Shown piece by piece: positions 6,940 through 40,108 of a DNA stretch of 64,000 nt. Source of the stretch: Christensenellaceae bacterium. Its GTDB lineage: Bacteria; Bacillota; Clostridia; Christensenellales; SZUA-584. Positions within the stretch are counted from its first letter, which is position 1. The number at the start of each line of letters is the position of its first letter. Under the pieces are notes generated by a model, which had not been told where the DNA came from, searched no databases, and was given only the letters and a program-made list of their open reading frames with translations. Both the position numbers and the translations under genes were made by a program. The DNA lies in contig CAXXTQ010000001.1 in the NCBI GenBank assembly GCA_963665005.2, forward strand, positions 1,496,382-1,560,381, written 5' to 3'.

Positions 6940-7767
6940 CAATTCGTTTCCGGGAAAACCGCAAAATCAATTTTAGTTGCGTGCGCTGTACGGCTTGCGG
7001 CTTTTAATTTGCAACAGATACGGGATATAACGAGTGATGACGAACTGGATATAGCGAGTTTGGGGAAGAAAAAGAGAGCTCTATTTGCAGTGATACCCGA
7101 TAATGATACGACATTTAATTTCCTAATTGGAATTCTGTATACACAAATTTTTCAAAAGCTATATTACGAGGCAGACCATAAGTATGAAGGCAGATTACCG
7201 ATGCACGTTCATTTTATGCTTGATGAGTTTCCGAACGTCGCCCTACCGGAGGATTTCGACAAATGCCTTGCTACAATGCGGTCAAGAGGTATATCAGCAA
7301 GCATTATTATTCAGAATCTGGCACAGCTAAAAAGCATGTTCAAGGGTGACAATCATATGTGGGAAAATATCGGAGGAAATTGTGACAGCATGCTTTTTCT
7401 AGGCGGGAATGAGCCGAATACACATGAGTATATTTCAAAAATGTTAGGCAAGGCAACAATTGAAACAAGGACATATGGACACAACAAAGGGCGTAATGGC
7501 TCATATTCGACTAACAGGCAGATTGTTGGCAGAGAGTTAATGCTGCCGAATGAAGTCAGAGAGTTTGATAACGATTACGGATTGCTTTTTATTCGTGGAG
7601 TAAAGCCCGTATTGGACAAAAAGTACGACATAAAGAAACACAGAAATAACCATTTAACGACCAATGGAAAAGGTGAACCATATGTTCACGTTCACTACCA
7701 AATTGAAACTATTGCATTTAAAGATTTTGATTTTGAGCGTGCCGGCGATTACATAATTTTAGAATAG
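6940..7767 (+). pseudogene. VirD4/TraG-type coupling protein, C-terminal ~275 codons only
   Basis: The frame is open from 6940 (QFVSGKTAKSILVACAVRLAAFNL...) into the 7009 ORF (LFAVIPDNDTTFNFL...HFMLDEFPNVALPEDF...SRGISASIIIQNLAQLK). It lacks the N-terminal TM and Walker A parts. In-frame stops lie just upstream at 6922..6927 and 6937..6939. Confidence 0.8.
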
Positions 7768-7846
7768 GATTGCATTCCATTTAACTCATATTAAAGGCTT
7801 ATAGGTTAGCCTAAAATAACCTAAAATATGAATTTAGGAGTTAATT

Positions 7847-8152
7847 ATGAAACGTAAAAAGAATATTAAGAGAATTATCGCTGTAACCGCTGTAATGGCG
7901 GTTTTTTTAATGACGGCTACTACGGCATATGCTGATGGTGACCCACTTCAGGTTGTAAATAACTTAAGTGATTTTATATTCAGTATGATTCGAGCTATTG
8001 GCGTTATCCTGCTTGGTTTTGGCATAGTGCAGATTGGTATGAGCTTAAAATCCCATGATCCATCACAGAGAAGCAACGGTTTTCTCACCTTTTTCGGCGG
8101 TGTTGTCATAATGTTTGCAAAAGAGATATTGACCCTTATTACCGGAGGATGA
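7847..8152 (+). CDS. Maff2-family small membrane protein (conjugative element)
   Basis: 101 aa with a signal/TM segment, an ADG..., and a second hydrophobic hairpin (AIGVILLGFGIVQIGMSLKSHDPSQRSNG). Size and position after the coupling protein fit Maff2. Confidence 0.7.
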   Translation: MKRKKNIKRIIAVTAVMAVFLMTATTAYADGDPLQVVNNLSDFIFSMIRAIGVILLGFGIVQIGMSLKSHDPSQRSNGFLTFFGGVVIMFAKEILTLITGG

Positions 8153-8229
8153 CAGCTATTGAAACTCGAATCCCACTGTCTCCTTAGAGATAGGGGGATT
8201 CGTTATTTAAATCAAGGAGGTGAATATTT

Positions 8230-9051
8230 TTGTGGATAATAGATAACTTAGAAAACGCACTCAAAACATGGAATGAGAAATTAGCAGAAATATGGAGTCT
8301 GATTACGCAGTCCCCACAAACTTTTCGTGGCGGTAATATCTGGGATGTCATCGTAGGGATAAATGGAGCATTGCAAGCAATAGGGTATGCTTTGTTAGTC
8401 TTGTTTTTTGTTGTGGGCATGGTAAAGAGCACGGCCAATTTGCAGGAAATAAAAAGGCCCGAAGTGGCTTTGCGTCTTTTCATTCGCTTTGCTCTGGCAA
8501 AGGCGGCTGTTACGTGGGGAATGGAAATACTCACAAGTATATTTCAAATATGCCAAGGTATTGTGCAGACCGCCGCAGGTAGTATGGGCATCGCTACGGA
8601 AGTTACATTGCCTGCTGAGATGGTAGACGCAGTTAGCAATTTGGGATTTTTTGAAAAAATACCGATATGGGCAGTCAGCTTAATCGGTTCGCTGTTTATA
8701 ATCATCTTGTCATTCATCATGCTGATGACTGTTTACGGCAGATTTTTTAAACTATATTTGTACACAGCCATCGCCCCGATACCCTTATCCAGTTTTGCAG
8801 GAGAAGGAACATCAAGTATGGGTAAAGCATTCTTAAAGAGTTATGCAGGCGTTTGCTTAGAAGGCGCAATTATAGTCCTTGCTTGTGTAATATTTTCCGT
8901 ATTTGCAGCTTCGCCGCCCAATGTTGATATGGATATGTCAGCTTCAAAGATCGTTTGGGCGTACATGGGTGAAATGATATTTAATTTATTGGTACTTGTA
9001 GGAACGGTAAAAATGGCAGACAAGATCGTGAAAGAGATGTTAGGATTTTGA
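8230..9051 (+). CDS. VirB6/TrbL-like polytopic T4SS membrane protein
   Basis: 273 aa with multiple TM segments, a TTG start about 10 nt after AAGGAGG, and the expected position in the T4SS module. Confidence 0.6.
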   Translation: MWIIDNLENALKTWNEKLAEIWSLITQSPQTFRGGNIWDVIVGINGALQAIGYALLVLFFVVGMVKSTANLQEIKRPEVALRLFIRFALAKAAVTWGMEILTSIFQICQGIVQTAAGSMGIATEVTLPAEMVDAVSNLGFFEKIPIWAVSLIGSLFIIILSFIMLMTVYGRFFKLYLYTAIAPIPLSSFAGEGTSSMGKAFLKSYAGVCLEGAIIVLACVIFSVFAASPPNVDMDMSASKIVWAYMGEMIFNLLVLVGTVKMADKIVKEMLGF

Positions 9052-9114
9052 TTTTTATATAAGAAATCAAAAAATAAGCAATTGCACCTATTGGTGCTTT
9101 TTTTGGAGGAAAAA

Positions 9115-9594
9115 ATGGAAATTAAAATACCCCGTGAGGTTAGAAAATATAAGGAAACAATTTTCTTCGGACTGTCCATGCGGCAGTTTTTTTGCAGCGC
9201 AATAGCAGTTGGTATAGCTGTACTTGCATATTTTGCATTACGTGAGACTCTAGGGAATGAAGGCGTATCATGGATATGCATATTGGTTGCCCTGCCCATA
9301 GCATTAATAGGCTTTGTAACCTATCACGAAATGACACTTGAACATTTTATTATGGTATGGATTAAGTCTGAATGGTTAATGCCAAAACGCCTGTATTTCA
9401 AATCAGATAACTATATGTACACGGCATATGAAAAATTAAAAGTAGATAAAAAACAGCAACAGAAAACACAAAAGCGAATAGAAACAATTGAACGTTTGAA
9501 AAACGGGGTTAAGAAAATTCAAGCTATGATTGTAAAATATTTTGCTTTAGCAAAACGATATATTCAAAATCGAATAAATTGGAGGAAAAAATAG
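9115..9594 (+). CDS. PrgI/TcpE-like small T4SS membrane protein
   Basis: The N-terminus MEIKIPREVRKYKETIFFGLSMRQFFCSAIAVG matches the PrgI-family pattern. The start is taken at ATG 9115, behind GGAGGA, rather than the track's TTG 9082. Confidence 0.7.
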   Translation: MEIKIPREVRKYKETIFFGLSMRQFFCSAIAVGIAVLAYFALRETLGNEGVSWICILVALPIALIGFVTYHEMTLEHFIMVWIKSEWLMPKRLYFKSDNYMYTAYEKLKVDKKQQQKTQKRIETIERLKNGVKKIQAMIVKYFALAKRYIQNRINWRKK

Positions 9595-9595
9595 A

Positions 9596-11311
9596 ATGTT
9601 TAATACGTTTAGGAGGATAAAGCAAGCTGAAAAAGAGGGATTGAACATTCCAAAGAGCGTGCAACAAGCCATTCCCATCACAAAGGTGTATGAGGATGGT
9701 ATTTTTAAAGTGGGCAATAACTTCTCAAAAACCCTACGGTTTACGGATATAAATTATCGTGTTGCCAGTAAAGATGATCAGATGGATATGTTTATGAGAT
9801 TCTGCGATTTAATTAACAGCATTGAGAGCGAAGCAGTAACAAAAATCACCATCAACAACAGGCGATTAAACCGCAAAGATTTTAAGCAGCGGATACTGCT
9901 GCCTGAAAAGGACGATTTCTTAGAAAAATACAGACATGAGTATAATGAGATGCTGATGGATAAGGCGACAAAATCAAGCAACTCTATGGTACAGGAGAAA
10001 TACATTACGGTTTCCTCTGCTAAAAAGAATGTAGTTGAAGCGAGAGCGTTGTTTTCAAGGTTCACTACGGATATTTCATCCTACCTGTCCAAGCTATCCA
10101 GCAGGTCGCAAGAGCTTGATGCTGTTGAAAAACTACGTATATTCCACGATTTCTATAGACTGGGCGAAGAAACCCATTACCACTTTGACTTGAAACAAGC
10201 AATACGTAAAGGGCATGATTTTAGGGATTATATCTGCCCGGACAGTATGGAGTTTAATAAAAACTATCTAAAGATTGGCGATAAGTATTGCAGGACATTT
10301 TATATGCGTGAATTTGCAAGTTTCATTAAGGATACTATGATAACCGAATTTATGGACTTGCTAAAGAATATGATGTTGTCCATTGATATGCTTCCCATTC
10401 CTACAGACGAAGCGGTGCAGATTATTAACAAGCTCATATTGGGGGTAGAAACAGATAAGGCGAGGTTTACTAGAAAGCAGTCTCAAAACGGCAACTTCAC
10501 AGCAGATATACCGTATGACCTTGAACAACGTTCAAAGGAACTCCATGAGTTTATGGATGACCTTACTTCTCGTGATCAAAGAATGTTGCTTGCAACAATA
10601 ACCATCGTTTTAGTTGCAGATAATTTGGAAGAGCTGGACGAGGATACCGAGAGCGTTTTGTCCATTGGCAGAAAGCATATTTGCCAATTTGCTTCTCTCA
10701 CTTTTCAGCAAGAGGAAGGGTTATATACGGTTTTGCCATTCGGTATGCACAAACTACCGTTTAAATGGCGTACTTTGACAACAGAGTCCACGGCTGTATT
10801 GATGCCATTCAATACAATGGACATACAGGATGAAAGTGGTATTTATTACGGTCTTAACGTCATTTCAAAGAACATGATAATAGCGGACAGGCGAAAACTG
10901 CTCAATGCAAATGGTTTTATTTTGGGAGTAAGCGGAAGCGGTAAATCGTTCAAAGCTAAAGAAGAAATGATTGCTTTGATGCTCCGTGGTGATGTAGATA
11001 TTATTTGTATCGACCCTGAGAACGAGTATGCAAACCTCTTTAGAGCCATGAATGGCGAAGTAATTAAAATATCCGCAGGAAGCAATAATCATATCAATGC
11101 CATGGATTTGAGCCGTGAGTATGGCGGAGATGAAAATCCCATCATTTTAAAGAGTGAGTTTATACTTTCGCTTATTGAACAGCTTGTAGGAACAGGTAAG
11201 CTGAACGCAAAGGAAAAGAGCATTATTGACCGTTGTACGGCTAATGTATACAGAGAGTACATAAATAATAATTTTGAAGGCTTACCGCCAACATTAAAAG
11301 ACTTTAGGCAG
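9596..11311 (+). pseudogene. VirB4-like conjugation ATPase, 5' fragment (through Walker A), disrupted by insertion
   Basis: Walker A is ILGVSGSGKSFKAKEE. VirB4-like sequence ends at ...PPTLKDFRQ (codon 11309..11311). The remaining 47 codons of the ORF (to 11452) read into inserted DNA. The missing C-terminal part is at 37486..38103. Confidence 0.85.
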
Positions 11312-27551: not shown

Positions 27552-28985
27552 ATGGCGATCTATCATTGCAGCATCAAAATCATAAAACGCAGCCAAGGCC
27601 GGAGCGCCGTGGCGGCGGCCGCCTACCGAAGCGGAAAAAAGCTGACCAACGAGTGGGACGGTATGACCCATGATTACACCCGCAAAGGTGGCGTTGTTCA
27701 TACGGAAATACTATTGCCCAGATATGCGCCCCCGGCGTTTCAAGACCGCTCCGCTCTTTGGAACAGAGTGGAGGTAATTGAGAAAAGCCGTAATGCCCAG
27801 CTCGCTCGCGAGATTGAAATCGCCCTGCCGGTGGAACTGAGCCGAAAAGAACAAATCAGTCTTGTCCGTGACTATATCCAAAATACTTTTGTGTCAGTGG
27901 GAATGTGCGCGGACGTGGCCATTCACGACAAAGGCGACGGCAATCCGCACGCACATATTCTGCTGACCATGCGCCCATTCAAGGAGGACGGCTCATGGGA
28001 CGCAAAGTGCATGAAGGAATATGATCTCGACAAACATGGGCAGCGTATCCGGCTGAAAAGCGGCGTGTTCAAAAGCCATCGAGTGGATACCACCGACTGG
28101 AACGAATCGACCAAAGCCGAAGCATGGCGAGCGGCATGGGCCGTATATGCCAATCGCATTTTTGAGGAAAAAGGGCTGTCGGAGCGTATCGACCACCGCA
28201 GCTATGAACGTCAGGGCGTAGAGCAGATGCCGACCGCCCACATGGGCGTGGCCGCGACGCAGATGGAACGCCGGGGCATTCATACCGATAAGGGCGGCGT
28301 CAATCGGGAGATTGCCGCTCAGAACAAATTGCTGAAAAAAATCAAGGCGCGTCTGACCCGGCTTTATAACTGGTCAAAGGAGCAAGCCGCACAGCCTGGC
28401 AAAAAGCGCAGTGTTTTGGAACAACTCCGGCAGGCACAAAACACGATACAAACCGCTCCTACCTATGGCAAGGCCAGGGCGCGCAATGAGGACGTGGCGC
28501 TGTTCAATCTTCTGCAAGAGAGAAAGATATCGTCTATACCGATACTACATGAAAAAATCTCCGATATGAACCGCGAGTATTACTCTCTGCGGGGAAAGAT
28601 TGCGAGCATCGAGCGCGAGCTTGGCAAACTCAATGAGCGACTTTCAATGTGGGAGCAGTACGAGGAAAACAAGAATGTATATCAGCAGCTTGCAACCTTG
28701 AAACCGGGTGTGCGGGATTCCTTCTCAGAAAAGCACCGTGTTGAACTGATCCTATTTGATTCCGCAGCCAACTACTTTGATGAGATGAAAGCCTTGGTCG
28801 AGGCCATTGAGCCGAAGAAATGGCGGGCGGAAATTGAACGATTGACAGCTCATAAGGATTCTCTTTTCCAGCAGGTAAAAGACATGCGCGGAGACATTGC
28901 GCTTTTGGAGAAATTTCGCAAGTCCGCCGAGGGTATTCCAAGCGGCAGAAAACCAATGACTAAGGAGTCTGAATATGAACGTTAA
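27552..28985 (+). CDS. MobA/MobL-family (MobQ-type) relaxase
   Basis: N-terminus MAIYHCSIKIIKRSQGRSAVAAAAYRSG and the His motif GNPHAHILLT, with a coiled-coil C-terminal half. Confidence 0.85.
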   Translation: MAIYHCSIKIIKRSQGRSAVAAAAYRSGKKLTNEWDGMTHDYTRKGGVVHTEILLPRYAPPAFQDRSALWNRVEVIEKSRNAQLAREIEIALPVELSRKEQISLVRDYIQNTFVSVGMCADVAIHDKGDGNPHAHILLTMRPFKEDGSWDAKCMKEYDLDKHGQRIRLKSGVFKSHRVDTTDWNESTKAEAWRAAWAVYANRIFEEKGLSERIDHRSYERQGVEQMPTAHMGVAATQMERRGIHTDKGGVNREIAAQNKLLKKIKARLTRLYNWSKEQAAQPGKKRSVLEQLRQAQNTIQTAPTYGKARARNEDVALFNLLQERKISSIPILHEKISDMNREYYSLRGKIASIERELGKLNERLSMWEQYEENKNVYQQLATLKPGVRDSFSEKHRVELILFDSAANYFDEMKALVEAIEPKKWRAEIERLTAHKDSLFQQVKDMRGDIALLEKFRKSAEGIPSGRKPMTKESEYER

Positions 28986-29357: not shown

Positions 29358-29532
29358 TAACAGCCAAAAGATAAAAGGGTTAGTACCAGCCGGAAAAAGA
29401 AAAGGTAATACGCGGTTCGTCGTGGTGCGTGAATACCAAGGGAACCAAAGTATGCAATCCGCTTTCCGGCAGGTCGTCGAAAACCGTGTATGCGAGCAGT
29501 ATGAGCAATGGATGGAGCGAAAATCCGAATAG
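29347..29532 (+). CDS. Small hypothetical protein (TnpW-like size and position)
   Basis: 61 aa, overlapping the previous gene by 11 nt and lying directly upstream of the recombinase. The family call is tentative. Confidence 0.35.
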   Translation: MNHDNSQKIKGLVPAGKRKGNTRFVVVREYQGNQSMQSAFRQVVENRVCEQYEQWMERKSE

Positions 29533-29603
29533 CGGAATTGAAAAAACGACGGGGACATGGTATAATTCCGGTATCGTGTCCCTGTTCATTTAAGGAGAAC
29601 CAA

Positions 29604-31244
29604 ATGAACAGGAAAATCAAATCTATCCATCCCATCACCGCCCTGTATTGCCGTCTTTCCATTGAGGACGGGCGCGACAACGAAAGCATGAGTATATCCA
29701 ATCAGAAATCTATGCTCAAGGACTACGCAGAAAAGAACGGTATGCGCGAGTACGCCTACTACGTTGACGACGGGTACACGGGCCGGAATTTCAACCGTCC
29801 CGGTTTCCAGCGCATGATTTCGGATATAGAATCTGGTAAGATCAATTGTGTGATCACCAAAGACCTGTCCCGCCTTGGCCGCAACTACATTGAAGCAGGC
29901 AGCTACATTGAGATATTCTTTCCGCGTCATAACGTTCGGTACATTGCCGTTGCGGATAATGTGGACAGTTCGAATCGACAGGAAATGGACATTACGCCGT
30001 TCAAGAATATTTTGAACGATATGTATAGCCGGGATATCTCCAAGAAGGTTTTAGCTGGACGTATGGCGCAATCCCGTCAAGGAAAATTCGGCGGTGGTCC
30101 AACGCCTTACGGCCTGATGCGTGACCCGAAGAACAGAGGGCATTTGATCATTGATCCCAAAACTGCGCCAACCGTTAAGCTGGTCTATGACCTTGCGTCG
30201 AATGGATATGGCGCGATGCGGATTGCCAAGCATCTTCTCGAACATAGGATACCGATCACGCGGAGCAGAACCGCGAAGACCGATGTGAATTATTACTCAT
30301 GGAGCGGTAACGTCATCTGCAAGATGCTCAGGAATCCGGTTTACCGGGGCGCGCATGTGGTCTGTAAAACCCATCAGAAGGCGATCCGTTCCAACACGTT
30401 CAATTTCATTCCCCGCGACCAATGGGAGATCGTCGAGGACAGCCATGAGGCTATTGTCCCGAAAGAGCAATGGGAACAGGTACAAAAGCTCATAGACCGT
30501 CGCCCGCCCATCATGCAGGGAAACGACTGCCCATTCTACAATCTGTTTCACGGGTTGATATGCTGCGCGACCTGTGGGAGATCAATGCAGGTGCGATATG
30601 AGAAGGTTGGCCGCGCTGATATTAACCGTACAACGAAACAAAAGCGGGAGCCGATTGATAAGGCATATTATATCTGTCAGACGTATAATCGGCTGGGGAA
30701 GAACGCCTGCACCAGCCACAAGATCGAAGCCCGCGACCTGTATAATCTTGTGCTGGCTGATATCCGGGAACACGCGAAAAAAGCTCTAAGGGACTCCGAT
30801 AGCTTCTATGTTCAGCTCGCCAAAAAGCTGGAGTTGCGGCACAGCGTTGACGAAAGAACACTTAAGAAAGAATTGGACACCTTAGCCGAACGGAGTAAAG
30901 AAATTGACGCGCTATTCATGAGTCTGTATGAGGATAAGGCGAAGGGCATTCTGACTGAGCAGCGGTTCGTAATGATGACGGATAAGCTGGAGCGGGAACA
31001 AACGCAGGGCAAGGCGCGGATACAGGAGATCATGGACGAGCTTGGTTGTGCCGATGACCGGAGTCGGGATGTACGAAGCTTCATAGAGGAAGTTGGTCAA
31101 TATTCTGCCATTGAGGAACTGGACGAGATGATTGTGCATCGGCTGATTGACAAAATCGTTGTGAGCCATGCCCATATTGAAAACGGCGAAAAGGTTCAGG
31201 AGGTCAGGCTCGTATATAACTTTGTAGGTGAGCTGGAGAAATAA
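29604..31244 (+). CDS. Large serine recombinase
   Basis: Start at ATG 29604 behind AAGGAGA. Resolvase catalytic domain (ALYCRLSIEDG...NQKSML...YVDDGYTGRNFNRPGFQRM...VITKDLSRLGRN). It also has a recombinase domain, a Cys-rich zinc ribbon (CCATCGRSM...C..Y.....C.SH) and a coiled coil. Confidence 0.9.
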   Translation: MNRKIKSIHPITALYCRLSIEDGRDNESMSISNQKSMLKDYAEKNGMREYAYYVDDGYTGRNFNRPGFQRMISDIESGKINCVITKDLSRLGRNYIEAGSYIEIFFPRHNVRYIAVADNVDSSNRQEMDITPFKNILNDMYSRDISKKVLAGRMAQSRQGKFGGGPTPYGLMRDPKNRGHLIIDPKTAPTVKLVYDLASNGYGAMRIAKHLLEHRIPITRSRTAKTDVNYYSWSGNVICKMLRNPVYRGAHVVCKTHQKAIRSNTFNFIPRDQWEIVEDSHEAIVPKEQWEQVQKLIDRRPPIMQGNDCPFYNLFHGLICCATCGRSMQVRYEKVGRADINRTTKQKREPIDKAYYICQTYNRLGKNACTSHKIEARDLYNLVLADIREHAKKALRDSDSFYVQLAKKLELRHSVDERTLKKELDTLAERSKEIDALFMSLYEDKAKGILTEQRFVMMTDKLEREQTQGKARIQEIMDELGCADDRSRDVRSFIEEVGQYSAIEELDEMIVHRLIDKIVVSHAHIENGEKVQEVRLVYNFVGELEK

Positions 31245-31327: not shown

Positions 31328-31356
31328 GTTGAATAATGGGAAAATTTGTAGTAGAA
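31328..31356 (+). promoter_or_regulatory. Sigma-A-like promoter in front of the three-gene operon
   Basis: TTGAAT (31328..31333), a 17-nt spacer, then TAGAAT (31351..31356). Confidence 0.45.
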
Positions 31357-31674
31357 TGGATTTAAGATTCTAGAAAATGCTCGTATTTGAAGCGAGAAAT
31401 CAGCAGTTCAAAGCAGTCGAAGTAAAGCTGACAACCATAATAATCCACTTATGCCCTAAAGGGAAAGACAAACTTATGAAGATTGCAATTGCATTGGGTG
31501 GTTTAAGTAGGTAAAGGGGCGATTGTTACGGGACATGAGCGTATTGGTTTTTTACCCCATACAAAACAATGGAGGGCGATTATTAATCAACTCGTCCAGT
31601 TTAGTGACGGCGAAATCCCCGTTACACAGATTACTAACGGTACGCTTAATGCTGTTAAAAATACATATGAAAAA

Positions 31675-32307
31675 ATGCCATATGATGAATCTATTATAAA
31701 AGCCCTCTCCTTCATTACTACACTTTCCTTTTCAGCAAAACTTGAGAATCAAGTTGATTTCTTGAATGAACATGGCTATTCTGTAGATTCTCAGTTATCA
31801 TTAATCTCATTAATGGTCAGCGCACAAAATTACATTACAACCGATTATGGCTCTTTAGAAGTAAATAAGTTAGCTAAGGATGCCGCAATGCAAGCGGTTA
31901 TTGATTACCAACAACGGCATGAGTCTAATCAACTTTCTATGTTTTCAGAGCAATCACAAAATGTCTGGGAAAGTGTTGGGACTGGAGCGGCTTTTTGTGA
32001 AATGGCGCGAACTTTTTTTGCATCATTTACAGAAAGACAATTAAAGTATTACATAGAACGGGCAGCCGCTAGCAATATAGATAACTACGAAACCTTAAAA
32101 ACGTTCAATCAAGAGTTATCTTTGCAGTCAAAAGCTATTGCCGACCATACCTTTGAAATCTCTAAATTAACTCAATCCTTTGCCGCTGCTTGGTTTAATA
32201 AAAATGCTATTGATTCTATACCAAACGAAAAGCAGGTAGAAAATTTCCTTAGAATGTCCTTTGGTAAATTACGCGAGGAATTCCGAAGGGAGGCTGATGG
32301 GCAATGA
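31675..32307 (+). CDS. Hypothetical protein A of the candidate defence operon (start uncertain)
   Basis: At least 210 aa with no motif I recognise. The frame is open upstream to 31507. The stop overlaps the start of gene B (ATGA). Confidence 0.6.
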   Translation: MPYDESIIKALSFITTLSFSAKLENQVDFLNEHGYSVDSQLSLISLMVSAQNYITTDYGSLEVNKLAKDAAMQAVIDYQQRHESNQLSMFSEQSQNVWESVGTGAAFCEMARTFFASFTERQLKYYIERAAASNIDNYETLKTFNQELSLQSKAIADHTFEISKLTQSFAAAWFNKNAIDSIPNEKQVENFLRMSFGKLREEFRREADGQ

Positions 32308-34187
32308 TCCAACAGACTCCTACTATGATTCGTGTTAATTGTGGGGAAATTTGTACAACCACTGAATGTACAGCATCTGAAATCAATCTACTTCACACCG
32401 ATATGGGTGACTTAACTTCGAATATTACCATTGGTTACGAAAGATTTGTTAAAAATCCTGATGAATTACCGGGTAGAATTCTTGATTTGTTACAGATTGC
32501 TGCTTATATATTTTGTGGCGATCGAATGGCTAATCGTGGTAAACGGGATAGCCTAAACAACGATTCATGGGCACGTACTTTTGAATTCCATATTCCTGTG
32601 CTAGATATAGAATTTTGGAACAGTGAAAAAACCAAAAAAGTACTAACTGATGTCTTAACGTTTTTAACAGGGGACCGTAGTTTTAGCTTTATCTTTTCAA
32701 AATCGGACAAGAACCCCGCAGAAATAAAGAACAAACAATTGTCATTGTTTTCAGAAGAATATAGCGATCCGATCGAGGCCCAAAAAACAGATATTATGCT
32801 TTTTTCTGGAGGACTTGATTCTTTAGCGGGAGCCATTCAAAGACTCAATGAACACAGAAATCGGTTCTTATGTGTTGTTAGTCATAAGTCCAATAAATCT
32901 GTGATGCATACACAAGATATGCTTATTTCCACCTTGAATATAAAATATGATAACAGAGCAAAGAAATACGGATTTGAATGCTGCAATCACAATGGATTGA
33001 AAAGTAAAGAAGAGACGCAACGCACAAGAATATTTCTTTTTTCAGCAATTGCTTTTTCATTATGCCATTGTTATGGTAAGCATGAGTTTTATGTTTACGA
33101 AAATGGTATTACGAGTTTAAATTTATCAAAGCAAGCTGATGTAATTAATGCTCGTGCCAGTAGAACAACGCATCCAAAAACATTAGGGATGCTCCGTATA
33201 TTTTATAGATTATTAGATTCTTCATTTGATATAAAAGCGCCTTATTATAATCAGACAAAAGCAGAAATTATGGAAGTGTTTAGAAAATATAATGAAGAAC
33301 ACTTGATTTCAAGTTCGGTTTCATGCAGTTCCTCCAGAACAAAGCCTGGACAAGTCCCCCATTGTGGATGCTGTTCACAATGTATTGACCGACGGTTTTC
33401 TATATTCGCGTCAGGCTTAGACGAATATGATGCCCCATATGCCAACGATTTTATTAATGCATTTCCAGATGATGACAACAATGAAACAAAGCAGCGGATT
33501 TATATTACTATGCGGTTAGCAAATCTTGAAGATATTTCGACTAAGGATGACTTTGTTAAAAAATATCCCTCTGATGTGATGGATATGATTCAATACTGGC
33601 AAGGTTCAAATAACGCTGACGATAAATTGGATGAAATATATTCATTGGTTTGTCGATATGGAAAATCTGTTATTAACGCTGCAACCAGAATGCGGAATAA
33701 ATATGATGACTTAACTCGGCCAATAAATAAAAATTCTTTGCTTGGGATAATATCGGAACGCAAATATATGAAAACGCCATGTTTCAATCGTGTTGCTGAA
33801 ATTGATATGATCCTTAAAAAAGCTATTCCAGACATTTTTCAGAGAGAAAAGCCTAAGAACGAAAATGATTTCAATGACAAGTTACATGGTATTCTTAGTA
33901 CTCGTGGAGAATTTACAAGAGAATATCCTGTGCTCCTATTTGGATTGTCTTCTTACAAAGCAGATCAAGCACAAGGAGACTTAATCATTGAGAGCAAATA
34001 TATTAGAGGGAAAACATCGCCAAGTGTCGCCAGTGAGGGTATTTCTGCAGATATAATAAAAATACCAGAGGGTTATGGTGTGATGTTTGTAGTATATGAT
34101 CCTGAAGGAAGTATAACTGATTCCTTGAAATTTTCGTCAACATTTGAGACAAAACGCAAGGATTGTTATGTACGAGTATATAGATGA
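32304..34187 (+). CDS. QueC-like PP-loop ATPase with N-terminal (~165 aa) and C-terminal (~240 aa, PD-(D/E)xK-like) extensions
   Basis: SGGLDS at 32805..32822. QRTRIFLFSAIAF, VYENGITS and APYYNQTKAEI parallel E. coli QueC blocks (GRNILFLTLAAIYA, ETDFSGYPDC, PLMWIDKAET). Cys cluster SCSS...HCGCCSQC at about 33324..33383. The C-terminus has ...YKADQAQGDLIIESKY (33960..33998). Confidence 0.8.
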   Translation: MIQQTPTMIRVNCGEICTTTECTASEINLLHTDMGDLTSNITIGYERFVKNPDELPGRILDLLQIAAYIFCGDRMANRGKRDSLNNDSWARTFEFHIPVLDIEFWNSEKTKKVLTDVLTFLTGDRSFSFIFSKSDKNPAEIKNKQLSLFSEEYSDPIEAQKTDIMLFSGGLDSLAGAIQRLNEHRNRFLCVVSHKSNKSVMHTQDMLISTLNIKYDNRAKKYGFECCNHNGLKSKEETQRTRIFLFSAIAFSLCHCYGKHEFYVYENGITSLNLSKQADVINARASRTTHPKTLGMLRIFYRLLDSSFDIKAPYYNQTKAEIMEVFRKYNEEHLISSSVSCSSSRTKPGQVPHCGCCSQCIDRRFSIFASGLDEYDAPYANDFINAFPDDDNNETKQRIYITMRLANLEDISTKDDFVKKYPSDVMDMIQYWQGSNNADDKLDEIYSLVCRYGKSVINAATRMRNKYDDLTRPINKNSLLGIISERKYMKTPCFNRVAEIDMILKKAIPDIFQREKPKNENDFNDKLHGILSTRGEFTREYPVLLFGLSSYKADQAQGDLIIESKYIRGKTSPSVASEGISADIIKIPEGYGVMFVVYDPEGSITDSLKFSSTFETKRKDCYVRVYR

Positions 34188-34280
34188 TGGGACTAAAAAA
34201 TAAGTAATGTATACAAATAAACTTGGATTTACTGCATTTTTATTAGACCATTAAACAAAAGTATTGTGGGAGTTGGTAAT

Positions 34281-37256
34281 ATGAAAATTATCAAATATAA
34301 AGTCGGTAATAATAAAGTAGCACAAATACAATCAGCTCCTAACGCAGGAATGTTGGAAGTTGATGCTGTGTTATCCTCATGGAAAAATGCAGTATCATAT
34401 AACACTCAGGACGAAGGTTCTCCTGGATTTCGGCCAGCACAGCTCGGGGCACTTTTTTCGATAAAAGCTCACTGGATTGTTTCAGACGAACCAGCTACTG
34501 TTGTTATGCCAACTGGTACAGGTAAAACAGAAACAATGATTGCTACTATTGTATCCGAAATGCTTGGGCGTACCTTAATTATTGTTCCAAATAGCTTACT
34601 AAGAGAGCAAACCGCTGAAAAATTTCTGACATTTGGTATTTTGCAAAAGATTAGTGTAATTAACGATAGCGCAATCAAACCAACTGTTACAACATTGCGT
34701 ACAACCCCCAAGGAACTTACTGATCTGCGAGAGATTTTTGATAAGTCTAATATAGTAGTTACCACAATGTCATTGTTGCAAAGATTTTCTGACGATTATT
34801 TGATGGCAATTACCGAAATCTGCAATACGTTAATTGTGGACGAAGCTCACCATATTGCGGCGAATAAATGGGCAACAGTAAAGTATAAATTAAGAAAATT
34901 GAAATGCCTGCAATTTACTGCAACACCCTTTAGAAACGATGGGAAAAAAGTCGACGGAAAAATAATTTACAATTTTCCTTTAGCAATGGCTCAGAAACAA
35001 GGATATTTTCAGCAAATCAATTTTCTTCCTATTTGGGAGTTTGATGAAGAAAAAGGCGATCTTGCTATTGCTTCAGCTGCCATCAACCAACTTGATAGTG
35101 ATTTGAAAGCTGGGTACAATCACATAATTCTTGTACGTGTTAAGAGCAAGATTTCTGCTGATCATTTGTACAGAAGCATTTATCGACAACATTTTGAAAA
35201 ATATAATCCAGTATTGGTGCATAGTGATATTTCTGCAACTGACAGGGCTAAGGCAATAGCGGCTCTTAACAATGGGAGTTCGCGAATAGTTGTTTGCGTG
35301 GATATGTTTGGAGAAGGAATTGATATTCCCAGTTTGAAAATAGCGGCTGTACATGACAAATATAAATCGCTTCCAATAACATTGCAATTCATTGGACGTT
35401 TTGCAAGGTCGAGCGAGGGGCTTGGTACAGCAACAGTGATTACCAACATAGCTAATGATGAATTAAACGAATCACTACGAGAGCTTTATACTCAAGATTC
35501 AGACTGGAATGTTTTGCTTCATGTTATGGCTAGTCGCGAGATTGATAAGGAACTATCATTACAAGAACTTGCCGAAGGATTTGATGTATCCTCTTTAAGC
35601 GGAATGACTATTCAGCAATTACGTCCAAAAGTAAGTATGATAGCTTACAGCACAAATGATAAAAACTGGAATCTAAGTGCTCTAAATAATTTCTTCGATC
35701 CTGATAAGTGTTATTTCACTGTCAACCATGACAATAAAGTAATAGTTATAATTGAAAAAATTGATTCGAATATTGAATGGTCTACCTTCAAAGGAATTAA
35801 CGATATAAATTGGAATTTGCATTTGGTCTATTGGAATCCCGAAATAAAAATGTTCTTCATAAACAGTACAAACAAAAGTATTTCTGACACTATAGCCGAT
35901 GCATTGTTTACTCAATCAATTAGAATAAGTGGTGAAAATGTATTCCGCTGTTTGCACGGCATTAAGCGTTTAATGCTCGGTACAGTTGGCCTAAAATCAG
36001 CTTTTGATGGTCCTATTCGTTATCGAATGTTTGCTGGAATTGATATTGCTAATGGTATTACTGAATCACAAAAAGAATCTTCCTTTAAATCAAATCTATT
36101 TGGGGTTGGATATGATGGGAGTGGCAAAGTAAGTATTGGATGTTCATATAAAGGTCGCATTTGGTCTAGGTGGGTCGAGAGTATTGATTTTTGGATGAAC
36201 TGGTGTGATAATATAGCTGCCCGACTACAAAATCAAGAAATTGACACTTCAAGAATATTTGAGGGAGCATTAGTACCTGAAATAATATATGAACGCCCCT
36301 CGTCTGTTCCCTACGAAATTGAATGGCCCATCGATATGGATTTGATAAATGATCGTAGTATCCTCATAACTCATGGACCTAACGATTATCCTGTTTATGC
36401 AATGGATATTAAACTTTCTGATTATAATGAAACTGGGCCGATACGATTTTCTGTCGGAAATAATAAAATTCGTGAAGAGTATGAATTACACATTTCTAAC
36501 CGAAAATATGAATTTAAGACAATTAAGCCGACGGGATTGATTATAAAGAGAAGTAAACGTGAATATAAGGTAGCAGAGTTTTTTAACGAATTTCCACCGC
36601 GCATTAAATTTGTTGACCAATCAATGCTAGAAGGAAATCTTCTGGTTAAAATAACCGCTATTCCTCCATCGTTTAATAGAGAACGCATACAGATTTGGAA
36701 TTGGAAAGGAATAGATATTCATAAAGAATCACAGGGCGCTGAGCGCAATAAACAAAGTATTCAATATCGTGTGATCCAGAACCTTGTGTCTACTGATCGT
36801 TTCAGCGTGATTTTTGACGATGATGATGCTGGCGAAATAGCAGATGTAGTTAGTATTGCCGATGACAAAAATAAAATTTCTATTCAGTTCTATCACTGCA
36901 AATATGCTCATGGAGATAATCCTGGTGCTAGAGTTGCTGATTTATACGAAGTATGCGGACAAGCAGAGAAATCAATAAAGTGGTGCCAAGAACCAACCGC
37001 AATCATTGATCGTCTTATAAAACGTGAATCTTCCCGTATACATTTGGGAGGAACAAGATTTGAAGTTGGAAGTCTGCGCAAACTTCGAGAAATTAAGAAT
37101 AAAATGCGTGTATTCCCAACACATATTCAAATTTTCATTGTACAACCTGGGATTGATTCCACAGCATTAACAGATGATATGATTCGTATACTTAGTGGAA
37201 CAGCATCATACTTAATGGATACCTATAGTGTAAAGCTACAAGTCATTTGTAGCTAA
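34281..37256 (+). CDS. SF2 DEAH-box helicase fused to a ~580-aa C-terminal region ending in a restriction-endonuclease-like module
   Basis: Start taken at ATG 34281 behind GGGAG (the track uses GTG 34266). Motif I is MPTGTGKTE (34509..), II is IVDEAHHI (34836..), III is TATP (34917..), V is MFGEGIDIP and VI is QFIGRFARS (35385..). The C-terminus reads DDDDAGEIADVVSI-x11-IQFYHCKY (36816..36902). Confidence 0.85.
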   Translation: MKIIKYKVGNNKVAQIQSAPNAGMLEVDAVLSSWKNAVSYNTQDEGSPGFRPAQLGALFSIKAHWIVSDEPATVVMPTGTGKTETMIATIVSEMLGRTLIIVPNSLLREQTAEKFLTFGILQKISVINDSAIKPTVTTLRTTPKELTDLREIFDKSNIVVTTMSLLQRFSDDYLMAITEICNTLIVDEAHHIAANKWATVKYKLRKLKCLQFTATPFRNDGKKVDGKIIYNFPLAMAQKQGYFQQINFLPIWEFDEEKGDLAIASAAINQLDSDLKAGYNHIILVRVKSKISADHLYRSIYRQHFEKYNPVLVHSDISATDRAKAIAALNNGSSRIVVCVDMFGEGIDIPSLKIAAVHDKYKSLPITLQFIGRFARSSEGLGTATVITNIANDELNESLRELYTQDSDWNVLLHVMASREIDKELSLQELAEGFDVSSLSGMTIQQLRPKVSMIAYSTNDKNWNLSALNNFFDPDKCYFTVNHDNKVIVIIEKIDSNIEWSTFKGINDINWNLHLVYWNPEIKMFFINSTNKSISDTIADALFTQSIRISGENVFRCLHGIKRLMLGTVGLKSAFDGPIRYRMFAGIDIANGITESQKESSFKSNLFGVGYDGSGKVSIGCSYKGRIWSRWVESIDFWMNWCDNIAARLQNQEIDTSRIFEGALVPEIIYERPSSVPYEIEWPIDMDLINDRSILITHGPNDYPVYAMDIKLSDYNETGPIRFSVGNNKIREEYELHISNRKYEFKTIKPTGLIIKRSKREYKVAEFFNEFPPRIKFVDQSMLEGNLLVKITAIPPSFNRERIQIWNWKGIDIHKESQGAERNKQSIQYRVIQNLVSTDRFSVIFDDDDAGEIADVVSIADDKNKISIQFYHCKYAHGDNPGARVADLYEVCGQAEKSIKWCQEPTAIIDRLIKRESSRIHLGGTRFEVGSLRKLREIKNKMRVFPTHIQIFIVQPGIDSTALTDDMIRILSGTASYLMDTYSVKLQVICS

Positions 37257-37485: not shown

Positions 37486-38103
37486 GAGCTATTAAAGCAG
37501 GACGAACCCGAAGCAAGAGAAGTAGCTCTAGCCATTGAGTTATTTACCGATGGCAGCTTAAACACCTTTGCACAGCAGACCAATGTGGATGTAAATAGCC
37601 AATACCTTGTCTATGACATAAAGGATTTAGGCAAGCAGCTACGCACAATTGGTATGCTTGTGGTGCTTGATAACATATTCAATCGTATTACTGAAAACAG
37701 GGCGAAAGGACGTATCACTTTTATCTATATTGACGAGATCTATCTGCTTTTTCAAAATGAGTATTCCTCTAACTTTTTGTTCGAATTATGGAAGCGTGTC
37801 AGAAAGTACGGAGCTTGTGCGACAGGGATTACCCAAAATGTTTCCGACCTTTTAGTATCACATACGGCTAGGACAATGCTTGCTAACAGCGAGTTTCTTT
37901 TGATGATGAATCAAGCTCCGACAGACAGGATTGAGCTTGCTAATCTAATCAACATCAGTGAAGCACAGCTATCCCACATAACGGATAATGAAAAAGCAGG
38001 TATAGGGCTTTTGAAATATGCAGGGAGCATCGTGCCTTTTGAAGATGATTTTCCACGACATACAAGGCTTTATAACTTGATGAATACAAAAATTGGTAAA
38101 TAA
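37486..38103 (+). pseudogene. VirB4-like conjugation ATPase, 3' fragment (Walker B onward)
   Basis: In frame from 37486: ELLKQDEPEAREVALAIELFTDGSLNTFAQQTNVDVNSQYLVYDIKDLGKQL...RITFIYIDEIYLLF (Walker B)...GITQNVSD. There is no start codon or N-terminal domain of its own. Confidence 0.85.
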
Positions 38104-38215
38104 AATAGATTCATAGGCAGGGTATTTTTCCCCCTATCTATGAATCCTACATCTTTAATTAAAAAATTAACAACAATAAGGCTTTTGCTTTCAGAAGTCT
38201 TTTTTTGTACAAAAA

Positions 38216-40108
38216 ATGAAAGGAGAGCCTATGGACAGACCAAAAACCAAACCCGTAAATACCACCCCAAGAGTGCTTAAAAAGACAGTACGAACAGTTA
38301 AAGGATTGAAAAGTGGTGTTGAAAAAACGGTAGGTACAGTAAATATGGCTAAAAAAGCTCATCACAAGCTAACGGAGCATATGCCAAGTGAAAATGAACA
38401 TCACAGGCCCGAAGAATATATGACTGATAAAATCAGCGAAAAAGCATCATATTCGGCAAGAAAGGTCGGCGGCAAAGCTACGGAAGGAGCAAAAAAACTC
38501 GCTAAAAAGGGTGTTAAGAAAGCATTGGACAACAGCCGTGTAAAGAAAAAAGCAAAAAATGATGAAAAGTTTAATGCGGATGTAAAAAAAGAAAAGCAAG
38601 CTAAAACTAAAGATTCATATAAAACAGCAAGAGATACTCATAAATCCAATGTTTCAGCAAAAACAAGTCAAAAACATAATGCGGAAATAAACATGCTGCA
38701 TACTACCGATAATTCTAAGAGAATCGCTAAGGATGCTATACATACGGGAAAAAAGACCAATAAGACAGTAAAAGCATCTAAAAAAACCATGAAATCAACC
38801 AAGAAAGCAGTGAAGACAACAAAAAAAGGCGTAAAGACTGCTGCTAAAACTGCTAAGATATCAGCAAAAGCGGCAAAAAAAGCGGCTGTGATTGCAAAAC
38901 GTGCGGCCGTATTGACAGCAAAAGCAATTAAGTACACAGTAAAGGCGGTTATTGTTGCAGTAAAAGTTGCAATAGCGGCTATAAAAGGGTTAATCGCTTT
39001 AATTGCCGCAGGCGGCTGGATTGTGATTATTATTATACTGATTATTGCTGTTATTATGCTAATTATATCCTCGCCCTTTGGCGTATTTACCAATGATACG
39101 GATGGAACAACGCCGACCATTTCAGAAGTTGTACAGGAAATCAATGAAGAGTATATAACTACAATCAACAATATTGTCATTAGTGCTGGGGATGTGGATG
39201 AAGTTATTGTTGAAGGGGAAACGGCATCATCAGACTTTACTCCGACCAATTGGATAGATGTTTTGGGTGTGTTTTCCGTTAAGTCAACCATGAATGATAA
39301 TCCAGATGAATATATGGATGTCCTGTTTATGGATGATATAAAGATTGAATCGTTAAAGGAAATATTTTGGCAAATGAATAGCATTTCATATGAGATACAA
39401 GAAGAAATGGTACCAATGCCCACATCTACACCAAGTCCAATACCAAACCTTAATACTACATCTATGCCCAAAACATCTTTGGCCCATGCACCAACACCCG
39501 AAATTATACGCACACTGATTGTCACAATGGAGGGCAAAACCTATGAGCAGGGAGCAGAAATTTATAGTTTTACTGATGAACAACAAGAAATCCTTGAAGA
39601 ATTAATGTCGCCATATTATATATCCTTGTACATGGAACTATGCGGCATGGATACATTCAACGGATTGACATCTGAGCAATTGTCGAAATTGGTAAAAGAT
39701 TTACCACAAGGAGAATTAGGTTCTGTTATTGTAGAATATGCTTCAACGAGGTTGGGACACCCATATAGCCAAGAAAAACGCGGACAAGGTAATTATGTGG
39801 ACTGCTCGTATTTCGCACGTTGGTGTTATCAGCAAGTGGGCATCACTACTCTGCCCGGAACAGCAGCAGCACAAGCACGATATTGTATTGATAACGGATT
39901 AACTATTGCAAAGTCTGACTTACAGATAGGCGACCTTATTTTTTGGTCGTTCAATACCAATGGACGATTTATGAATGTAACACATGTTGGAATCTATGCT
40001 GGGGCTGGATATGTGATAGATGCGTCATCTTCTAGGGGAATGGTTGTTTATAGGCCAATTTTCGGTGAACGAAGTATTGTAGCCTGTGGTAGACCACATG
40101 TTAAATAG
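38216..40108 (+). CDS. Conjugative-element cell-wall hydrolase (K-rich N-terminus, TM segment, C-terminal NlpC/P60 domain)
   Basis: The catalytic context is NYVDCSYFARW (Cys) and VTHVGIYAG (His). A long Lys/Ala-rich region and a TM segment (GGWIVIIIILIIAVIMLII) precede it. The start may be ATG 38231. Confidence 0.8.
   Translation: MKGEPMDRPKTKPVNTTPRVLKKTVRTVKGLKSGVEKTVGTVNMAKKAHHKLTEHMPSENEHHRPEEYMTDKISEKASYSARKVGGKATEGAKKLAKKGVKKALDNSRVKKKAKNDEKFNADVKKEKQAKTKDSYKTARDTHKSNVSAKTSQKHNAEINMLHTTDNSKRIAKDAIHTGKKTNKTVKASKKTMKSTKKAVKTTKKGVKTAAKTAKISAKAAKKAAVIAKRAAVLTAKAIKYTVKAVIVAVKVAIAAIKGLIALIAAGGWIVIIIILIIAVIMLIISSPFGVFTNDTDGTTPTISEVVQEINEEYITTINNIVISAGDVDEVIVEGETASSDFTPTNWIDVLGVFSVKSTMNDNPDEYMDVLFMDDIKIESLKEIFWQMNSISYEIQEEMVPMPTSTPSPIPNLNTTSMPKTSLAHAPTPEIIRTLIVTMEGKTYEQGAEIYSFTDEQQEILEELMSPYYISLYMELCGMDTFNGLTSEQLSKLVKDLPQGELGSVIVEYASTRLGHPYSQEKRGQGNYVDCSYFARWCYQQVGITTLPGTAAAQARYCIDNGLTIAKSDLQIGDLIFWSFNTNGRFMNVTHVGIYAGAGYVIDASSSRGMVVYRPIFGERSIVACGRPHVK

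Follow-up and report, generated by a model that had tools for sequence, protein, structure and literature searches.

Structural papers of 2026 place QatB and QatC at the core of Qat immunity, and leave open both what QatC attaches to QatB and how phage is stopped (PMC13279940, PMC13376578, PMC13639016). Here we describe a relative of this pair from a Christensenellaceae bacterium, located in positions 1,496,382 to 1,560,381 of contig CAXXTQ010000001.1; this whole stretch of 64,000 nucleotides is referred to below as the window. At 32304..34187 of its plus strand, an uninterrupted open reading frame (ORF) with an ATG start encodes a 627-aa protein in which a QatC-type enzyme is predicted to be fused to a nuclease domain, and the gene directly upstream encodes a putative QatB-like partner. 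The fusion ORF is probably, although far from certainly, the catalytic subunit of a compact two-gene Qat relative ("QatBC-nuclease"), whose QatC part would modify the N-terminal Gly of the partner and whose fused nuclease would act as the effector.

The QatC of Pseudomonas aeruginosa (Pa) consists of a QatC-specific N-terminal α/β extension, a QueC-fold core (Pa 145-377) and, as the part to which QatB binds, a C-terminal extension of three helices; functional roles of its core residues corresponding to those discussed below have been described, T278 and T280 are essential, and the Zn-site equivalents are C334, C354, C357 and C360 (PMC13279940). Canonical QatB starts with MGTS, carries a conserved Leu-Pro and Trp in a disordered tail of 30-90 residues and needs Gly2 for defense (PMC13279940). 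The tail inserts into the QatC active site (PMC13376578, PMC13639016), and both Gly2 and the QatC PP-loop are essential for defense (PMC13279940, PMC13376578, PMC13639016, PMC13434339). QatD, a separate TIM-barrel enzyme with metal-dependent 3'-5' exonuclease and apurinic/apyrimidinic endonuclease activity (PMC13434339), is held by the long N-terminal tail of QatB (PMC13639016), and QatBC alone defends against some phages without QatD or any other nuclease (PMC13279940, PMC13434339). Canonical QatC fails to complement a queC deletion (PMC13329287) and is not stimulated by 7-carboxy-7-deazaguanine (CDG; PMC13376578). In the type IV cyclic-oligonucleotide-based antiphage signaling system (CBASS), Cap9, too, is a PP-loop enzyme of QueC fold, and its target is the N-terminal Gly of a partner encoded next to it, CdnD (9NTO; bioRxiv 10.1101/2025.04.06.647259); unlike the protein described here, it is a minimal QueC of ~185 aa that keeps the CDG-binding Tyr/Asp, has a nucleotidyltransferase of the cGAS/DncV-like kind (CD-NTase) as its partner and works with Cap10, which resembles tRNA-guanine transglycosylase (TGT).

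The fusion protein

The coding sequence of the fusion protein is divided as follows, each part on the plus strand.

32304..32780, plus strand: QatC-specific N-terminal domain, residues 1-159, with D61, D73-R74, R78, W89-x-R91, D101 and GDR
32781..33470, plus strand: PP-loop (QueC-fold) catalytic core, residues 160-389, with SGGLDS 168-173 (32805..32822), R240-x-R242-xxx-F246, E266-N-G268, S286-R-T288-T289-H290-P291, P313-xxxx-T318-K319 and the Zn ligands C341, C354, C357 and C360
33471..33608, plus strand: C-terminal helical extension in common with canonical QatC, residues ~390-435
33609..33848, plus strand: helical linker of the fusion family, residues ~436-515, with AlphaFold2 (AF2) helices 438-467, 479-484 and 492-514
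33849..34184, plus strand: predicted PD-(D/E)xK (REase DpnII-MboI-like) domain, residues ~516-627

A first-pass annotation, made from the letters of the window, had described this 627-aa ORF through a series of sequence blocks, all of which are present in the translation: LDLLQIAAYIFCGDR (residues 60-74), SGGLDS (at the coordinates given there), QRTRIFLFSAIAF (239-251), VYENGITS (264-271), APYYNQTKAEI (312-322), SCSS (340-343) and HCGCCSQC (353-360).

Over residues ~58-435, profile and motif evidence identifies a predicted QatC-type PP-loop ATP pyrophosphatase whose ATP site, Zn site and QatC-specific motifs are intact. The PADLOC QatC profile matches residues 58-417 (E 1.1e-51; profile positions 59-412 of 453) and the NCBIfam QatC profile NF041925 residues 59-410 (E 4.5e-59, 200.3 bits), while the solved QatC structures 9vlk and 9zee align to residues 60-388 (E 3e-24 and 1e-22). 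The QatC signature positions are kept in an alignment of 41 homologs at 28-75% identity; these comprise D61, D73-R74...R78 and W89-x-R91, the core motifs listed above from SGGLDS to S286-R-T288-T289-H290-P291, P313...T318-K319 and the four Cys, so that the conservation of PP-loop and Cys ligands on which the first-pass annotation had made its reading depend is indeed found. The motif residues of the N-terminal domain are invariant or nearly so among the same 41 homologs and correspond to published QatC signature motifs, from which the WxR element differs by 3 residues in its spacing (PMC13329287). That published set comprises a catalytic Asp, D(x)4R...WxR, RxRxxxF, P(x)4TK and HP, and each of these has its conserved counterpart here.

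Like canonical QatC (QatABCD; 9VLK, 9ZEE), the protein has a three-part body with an SGGxDS PP-loop, four Cys for Zn in a C(x)n-CGxCxxC arrangement and helices that extend the C-terminus (PMC13279940, PMC13376578, PMC13639016), and its active site is remodeled in the same way, with RTTHP in place of the Tyr/Asp of QueC and Cap9. It reads ASRTTHP where canonical QatC reads STRTTHP: in the alignment, S286 and T288 are the counterparts of Pa T278 and T280, the second Thr being retained and the first replaced by a conservative Ser. Other differences from canonical QatC are an identity of 26-30%, ~190 extra C-terminal residues with a PD-(D/E)xK motif, and the lack of qatA or qatD nearby.

Two further assignments were considered and rejected. 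The first-pass annotation had called the core QueC-like and a deazapurine-type adenylating enzyme, but the protein is not a deazapurine-synthesizing QueC: TIGR00364, the equivalog profile of canonical QueC, gives 19.6 bits against a cutoff of 150.3 and matches through the C-terminal Zn segment alone; the Pfam match of housekeeping QueC is limited to the same segment (residues 305-364), the QueC substrate motifs are replaced, and neither a TGT nor a DpdA neighbor is present, which speaks against a housekeeping or a Dpd-like role in deazaguanine DNA modification. Membership of the Cap9/type IV CBASS group fails on a marginal match to the Cap9 structure (E 0.8) and the absence of a CD-NTase or TGT-like neighbor.

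The boundaries of the QatC part also revise what counts as additional sequence. The first ~165 residues, previously regarded as an extra domain, are the ordinary N-terminal extension of QatC, because published QatC has such an α/β extension, and QatC profiles and solved structures align from residue ~58. Of the last ~240 residues, which had been set apart in the same manner, residues ~390-435 belong to the ordinary helical extension of QatC (AF2 helices 391-407, 414-420 and 422-431): the QatC profiles extend to residues 410-417, and the RefSeq-annotated canonical QatC proteins of Enterococcus (425 aa) and Planococcus (475 aa) terminate opposite residue ~435 in the alignment. The ~190 residues that follow are truly additional and consist of the helical linker and a C-terminal domain of ~112 aa. 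The linker has no counterpart in canonical QatC in the alignment, and no Pfam match.

The C-terminal domain is predicted to be a PD-(D/E)xK nuclease that belongs to Pfam's DpnII/MboI family (PF18742, REase_DpnII-MboI) and has an invariant E...D...ExK; the assignment is founded on matches to this profile and on the invariance of the catalytic residues, and the fold evidence is consistent with it, not decisive. In an alignment of the last 128 residues of 41 orthologs and the window protein, 42/42 sequences match PF18742 at E <= 0.01, and since the motif lies within a domain so recognized (best E 6.9e-15) it is not a chance occurrence. Ten diverse orthologs scanned singly scored 26.9-55.4 bits, nine of them above the Pfam gathering threshold at 31-55 bits, and the matches of orthologs span profile positions ~32-146 of 150. 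The setting of the domain is different: here it forms the C-terminal module of a presumed protein-modifying enzyme, and not a type II restriction enzyme that stands by itself and is paired with its methylase.

E520, E540, D554, E563, K565 and Y598-D599-P600 are invariant in the nuclease domain down to 28% identity (overall range 28-75%), and R539, P542, F546 and R568 are kept in at least 90% of the aligned homologs. Such an invariant catalytic set is expected of an active PD-(D/E)xK nuclease and is usually lost in derivatives that only bind. A domain of this type had been proposed in the first-pass annotation, and the profile matches, catalytic set and AF2 model support it, with corrections of detail. 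The string SSYKADQAQGDLIIESKYIRG occupies residues 549-569 (33948..34010), and the interval that had been quoted for it, 33960..33998, spans ADQAQGDLIIESK only; the first acidic residue is D554 instead of D553; and of the other catalytic candidates named there, D559 is not conserved in homologs, whereas E563 and K565 are, together with D554, invariant.

The AF2 model of residues 385-627 has a mean predicted local distance difference test score (pLDDT) of 83, with a core at ~90 or more except for one loop. Helix 520-532 begins at E520 and is followed by a short strand near R539-E540, by strand 555-557 with D554 just before it, and by strand 560-566, which bears E563 and K565; helix 573-586, strand 592-598, helix 607-615 and strand 621-626 come next. 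An α-β-β-β-α-β order with this placement of E, D and ExK defines the PD-(D/E)xK core, and the modeled order can be read as such a core. A profile of the 42 nuclease-domain sequences has no match among PDB sequences, and when just the last 228 aa were used as the query of a protein search, fragments of the same fusion family were all that was retrieved, with no other domain architecture among them.

The QatB-like partner and the spread of the pair

The gene upstream of the fusion ORF, and the signals in front of it, are arranged as follows.

31329..31357, plus strand: sigma-70-like promoter match TTGAAT-17-TAGAAT upstream of the module; weak, from a consensus scan that gave fewer sites than in shuffled sequence
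31513..31519, plus strand: Shine-Dalgarno-like AAAGGGG, read from the sequence, at the ideal spacing of 8 nt before the ACG
31528..32307, plus strand: QatB-like partner gene, of 259 codons if the ACG at 31528 is taken as the first; predicted product (M)GHERIGFLPHTKQW, all-helical

The reading frame of the partner is open from 31507, and its ATG-started portion covers 31675..32307 (210 aa); orthologs begin with ATG-GGN-CAT-GAG at precisely the equivalent of position 31528, and relatives have 259 codons and the N-terminus MGHERIGFLP.TK.W. The TGA stop of the partner overlaps the ATG of the fusion gene by 4 nt (ATGA), as it does in three related loci (L001, L002 and L060), which suggests translational coupling. 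The L001 pair, at 7225..9884, is an intact one from Christensenellaceae. A 12-codon ORF in another frame, MKIAIALGGLSR followed by a stop (31476..31514), ends inside the Shine-Dalgarno region of the partner; in its counterpart on a closely related metagenome contig (L063) the stop is replaced by CAA, and the frame continues to a TGA that overlaps the QatB-like start. It may serve as a leader, may couple translation, or may be mere noise.

A jackhmmer search of the collected loci found the partner directly upstream of the fusion gene in 42/42 loci with an intact fusion and upstream sequence. Its N-terminus, M-G-H-E-R-x-G-x-L-P-x-T-x-x-W, is kept across phyla, with a GTG or TTG start now and then. 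An exhaustive search of 1.84 billion representatives placed the partner family in 450 clusters at 50% identity, 218 of them at E <= 1e-10; because G1 of the query is nearly always aligned to residue 2 of the matches, these begin with Met-Gly. An alignment of 63 partner sequences has four invariant residues, G1, W14, W221 and K246, and five that hardly vary, H2, R4, G6, L8 and P9, and the AF2 model (pLDDT 91) is all-helical, with about ten helices of which the first starts at residue 12.

For a comparison by hhalign, 16 sequences of canonical QatB were drawn from plasmid loci annotated as qatABCD and from a database search; with these the partner family aligned over 218 columns (probability 93.5%, E 2.4e-7), the invariant Trp of both families being paired (partner W14 with the conserved QatB Trp). 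The two also agree in their position directly upstream of a QatC-type gene, in a length of ~240-260 aa, in an all-helical fold of about ten helices, and in an invariant N-terminal Met-Gly, behind which the Leu-Pro ... Trp element is conserved; conversely, the fusion gene, like qatC, directly follows a small helical partner that starts with Met-Gly. They differ in that the partner has MGHER instead of MGTS, has a tail of ~10 residues before the first helix instead of 30-90 disordered ones, and has no HMMER-detectable similarity to QatB. Searches of PADLOC, NCBIfam and Pfam with the partner returned nothing meaningful, and canonical QatB, whose precomputed Pfam match is PF28083, was likewise unmatched in the Pfam set used. 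Taken together, these features point to the upstream gene as a divergent, remote equivalent of qatB with a far shorter tail.

Neither this gene nor the distribution of the fusion had been noticed in the first-pass annotation. In a database search, the fusion protein had at least 120 full-length matches that measure 621-633 aa and are 51-82% identical to it; most carry precomputed PF18742 and PF06508 matches, and they are entered at their source as "hypothetical protein" or "7-cyano-7-deazaguanine synthase". Among orthologous loci collected from 57 species-level genomes, 42 have an intact fusion ORF (616-675 aa, SGGxDS at ~161-214). Loci with the fusion are drawn from more than a dozen phyla, the lineages being Clostridia, Bacteroidota, Chloroflexota, Actinomycetota, Acidobacteriota, Planctomycetota, Verrucomicrobiota, Desulfobacterota, Pseudomonadota, Spirochaetota, Ignavibacteriota, Gemmatimonadota, Patescibacteria, relatives of Cyanobacteriota and one archaeon; the gene pair is also borne by a Leptospira noguchii plasmid (WP_243818872/WP_243818873, both "hypothetical protein" in RefSeq). 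The fusion is thus a conserved family of many phyla and not a one-off. In several genomes (L023, L024, L030, L040 and L053, match regions near 8001) the ORF with the nuclease domain is short, 199-374 aa instead of ~625 aa; these may be frameshifted pseudogenes, assembly errors or truly split genes.

No description of a fusion of QueC or QatC to a nuclease was found in the 2026 Qat papers, the QueC-family survey, the Cap9 preprint or full-text literature searches that included the Pfam domain name. As regards novelty, the pair is best classed as a variant, or subtype, of the Qat kind rather than canonical QatABCD, because it fails the equivalog score and lacks a QatA/QatD operon and yet has the structural and motif features of the group. 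There is room for such variants, since QatC often occurs without a qatA or qatD neighbor: about one third of the QatC cluster in the QueC survey adjoins either gene (PMC13329287).

Genomic setting

All-against-all clustering of the ORFs of 58 loci gave one large cluster, consisting of the two module genes; no further cluster occurs in more than 7 of the 58 loci, the largest being made of antisense ORFs within the module. The 69 nearest flanking ORFs, annotated with Pfam and PADLOC, contain no recurrent partner (at most 3/69), neither QatA (KAP NTPase) nor QatD (TatD) was found in the window or among the neighbor families of 35 related loci, and the 58-locus clustering revealed no methylase conserved near the module. 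The unit is self-contained and has two genes. With no TatD/QatD or QatA conserved beside related loci, it is plausible that the nuclease part substitutes for the separate Qat nuclease, as had been suggested in the initial annotation.

The flanking genes are heterogeneous and often of the defense type, including GajA, OLD-family proteins, AriA, type II, type III and ISP methylases, HNH proteins, AbiEii-like and Schlafen-like ATPases and a PD-T4-6-type kinase. A copy of the module that is 81% identical to that of the window (L064 992..5618 / L065 1734..6360) adjoins a reverse-transcriptase protein of 1026 aa and an ATPase of the Schlafen/AlbA_2 type, as is typical of a defense island.

Within the window, mobile DNA meets other mobile DNA at the site of the module, which is cargo there, next to the following genes.

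27552..28985: MobA/MobL relaxase, upstream of the module
29508..31244: large serine recombinase with DUF4368, upstream of the module
34266..37256, plus strand: superfamily 2 (SF2) helicase protein of 996 aa, 79 bp downstream of the module
37585..40108: 172-aa TraG P-loop fragment and 630-aa NlpC/P60 protein, downstream of the module

The G+C content is ~50% before ~31 kb and ~36% after it, and this drop suggests that two elements of different origin are joined there; L063 has the same relaxase and recombinase upstream, and different genes downstream. The 996-aa protein has ResIII, DEAD and Helicase_C matches over residues 55-400, followed by ~570 residues without a Pfam match; its PADLOC matches, which are weak, are to PbeA and to methyl-directed restriction enzymes of type IV, and its helicase part resembles PDB 7clg. 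Considered as a third component, it was rejected, as it has no counterpart beside the module in the 58 loci and is missing from L063, and it may be a separate defense gene.

Proposed working and its alternatives

If the pair works as proposed, removal of Met1 would expose Gly-His-Glu-Arg at the N-terminus of the partner, and this Gly would enter the QatC active site as in QatBC and Cap9-CdnD; by the same analogy, its amine would attack an AMP-activated carboxylate in the PP-loop site, leaving the N-terminus of the partner covalently modified. Judging from the architecture, the fused nuclease would be the effector, cutting phage DNA or, in abortive infection, host DNA; it would be gated by the state of the QatB-like/QatC complex, and would stand in for the separate TatD nuclease QatD, with the QatA ATPase dispensed with. 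QatD is likewise a nuclease component tied to a QatBC core (PMC13639016), although as a separate protein rather than a fused domain, and with a TIM-barrel fold unrelated to PD-(D/E)xK. A module free of QatA and QatD is plausible because QatBC alone protects against some phages (PMC13279940, PMC13434339), and the short tail of the partner (~10 residues against 30-90 in QatB) fits, since there is no separate QatD to reach.

Several observations weigh against this reading. The window protein lies below two cutoffs, with 200.3 bits against the equivalog cutoff of 280 bits for NF041925, and with 24.4 bits (whole protein) or 25.7 bits (isolated domain) against the threshold of 27 for PF18742. A Foldseek search of the PDB with the C-terminal model placed type II restriction enzymes (OkrAI, E 0.11, probability 0.75, and BglII), MUS81 and XPF at the top, none significantly (E >= 0.1), and the viral models of BFVD included many entries named endonuclease, the best of which (E 0.007) is not significant either. 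The link between the partner and QatB comes from one profile-profile comparison of two all-helical families and from their common N-terminal logic; phmmer and the 63-sequence profile found nothing relevant among solved QatB structures and all PDB chains, and a Foldseek search with the partner model had no match in a PDB library ending 8 April 2026, from which QatB structures are possibly absent, the QatBC papers having appeared between April and September 2026, so that this negative carries no information. The reaction of canonical QatC, including its carboxylate substrate, is itself still open in the literature (PMC13279940, PMC13376578). Lastly, the start codon of the partner and the closest relative of the module, both considered below, raise the question of whether this copy is in good order.

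A more far-reaching form of the proposal is possible, but we hold it only tentatively: the pair might be a distinct, self-contained "type II Qat" module in which modification of the QatB-like partner directly licenses the nuclease on the same polypeptide as QatC, the ACG start of the partner being maintained under selection. If true, this would supply the missing link between QatB modification and effector output, and a two-protein system that reads out QatC chemistry as DNA cleavage.

Among the explanations that compete with a Qat-like defense module, an addiction module, similar to toxin-antitoxin pairs and stabilizing mobile elements, is the strongest, although we regard it as unlikely. The nuclease would be the toxin, silenced by the QatB-like protein or its modification. 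This would suit the location of the module on mobile DNA (with relaxase, serine recombinase and conjugation genes in the window, next to IS982 on the Leptospira noguchii plasmid and next to IS21 in Pelotomaculum), its compactness, with two genes that appear translationally coupled, and its repeated inactivation, by an insertion sequence (IS) and a frameshift in L063 and as short or split ORFs in several loci. However, the homologous QatBC pair has measured phage defense (PMC13279940, PMC13434339), and neighbors elsewhere are mostly recognized defense genes, not plasmid-maintenance genes; addiction and defense are, moreover, not mutually exclusive.

That the window copy is a decaying, non-functional remnant, whose QatB-like gene has lost its ATG, is rather improbable. 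At 31528-31530 the partner has ACG where orthologs have ATG, and near-cognate start codons are weak; the same ACG (at ~9225) is found in L063, an independent metagenome contig with a module 96% identical to that of the window, while two remoter relatives have ATG. In L063 (10001..13500) the fusion gene is broken as well: its frame shifts at codon ~469, and an IS of ~1.6 kb (DDE_Tnp_1 transposase) sits within the nuclease domain, at the equivalent of window position ~33985. Because the partner lacks a canonical start and the fusion gene of the closest relative is broken, expression of the module in this lineage may be weak, or the copy may be in decay. Yet the fusion ORF of the window is intact and has every invariant residue, and the ACG is ideally spaced from its Shine-Dalgarno sequence, in a geometry equivalent to that of L065 (AAAGGAG, 8 nt, then ATG). 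Since the ACG copies diverged, 9 synonymous and 2 non-synonymous differences have accumulated between the partner genes of window and L063; the resulting ratio of non-synonymous to synonymous substitution rates (dN/dS) of 0.06 argues that the partner is under purifying selection and still translated, and the corresponding value for the first 471 codons of the fusion gene is 0.16. The partner thus appears to be translated still, probably from the ACG, which may be a natural initiation codon or a device that throttles expression.

Least probable is that the PD-(D/E)xK domain binds or senses phage DNA or DNA ends and switches on QatC, the modified QatB-like protein being the effector: canonical QatBC defends without any nuclease, so that a QatB-based output exists (PMC13279940), a sensor could explain why the QatA ATPase is dispensable, and the abstract of one study states that DNA binding by QatC was assessed (PMC13376578), but E520, D554, E563 and K565 are invariant as a full set in 42 sequences down to 28% identity.

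With the two-gene Qat relative retained as the preferred reading, the existence of a natural and widespread variant that lacks QatA and QatD and has a predicted nuclease of classical type fused to QatC suggests that at least one output of this chemistry is DNA cleavage. The pair offers a minimal system for reconstitution, in which nuclease activity is the readout and the Gly N-terminus of the partner the switch. Its partner adds a second, very divergent QatB family, and the features held in common with the first, namely the Met-Gly start, the Leu-Pro...Trp and the helical body, mark what matters. The finding also bears on annotation, where the family is now missed or mislabeled: the fusion protein falls under the NCBIfam QatC cutoff, and the partner is not among the models of PADLOC 2.0.

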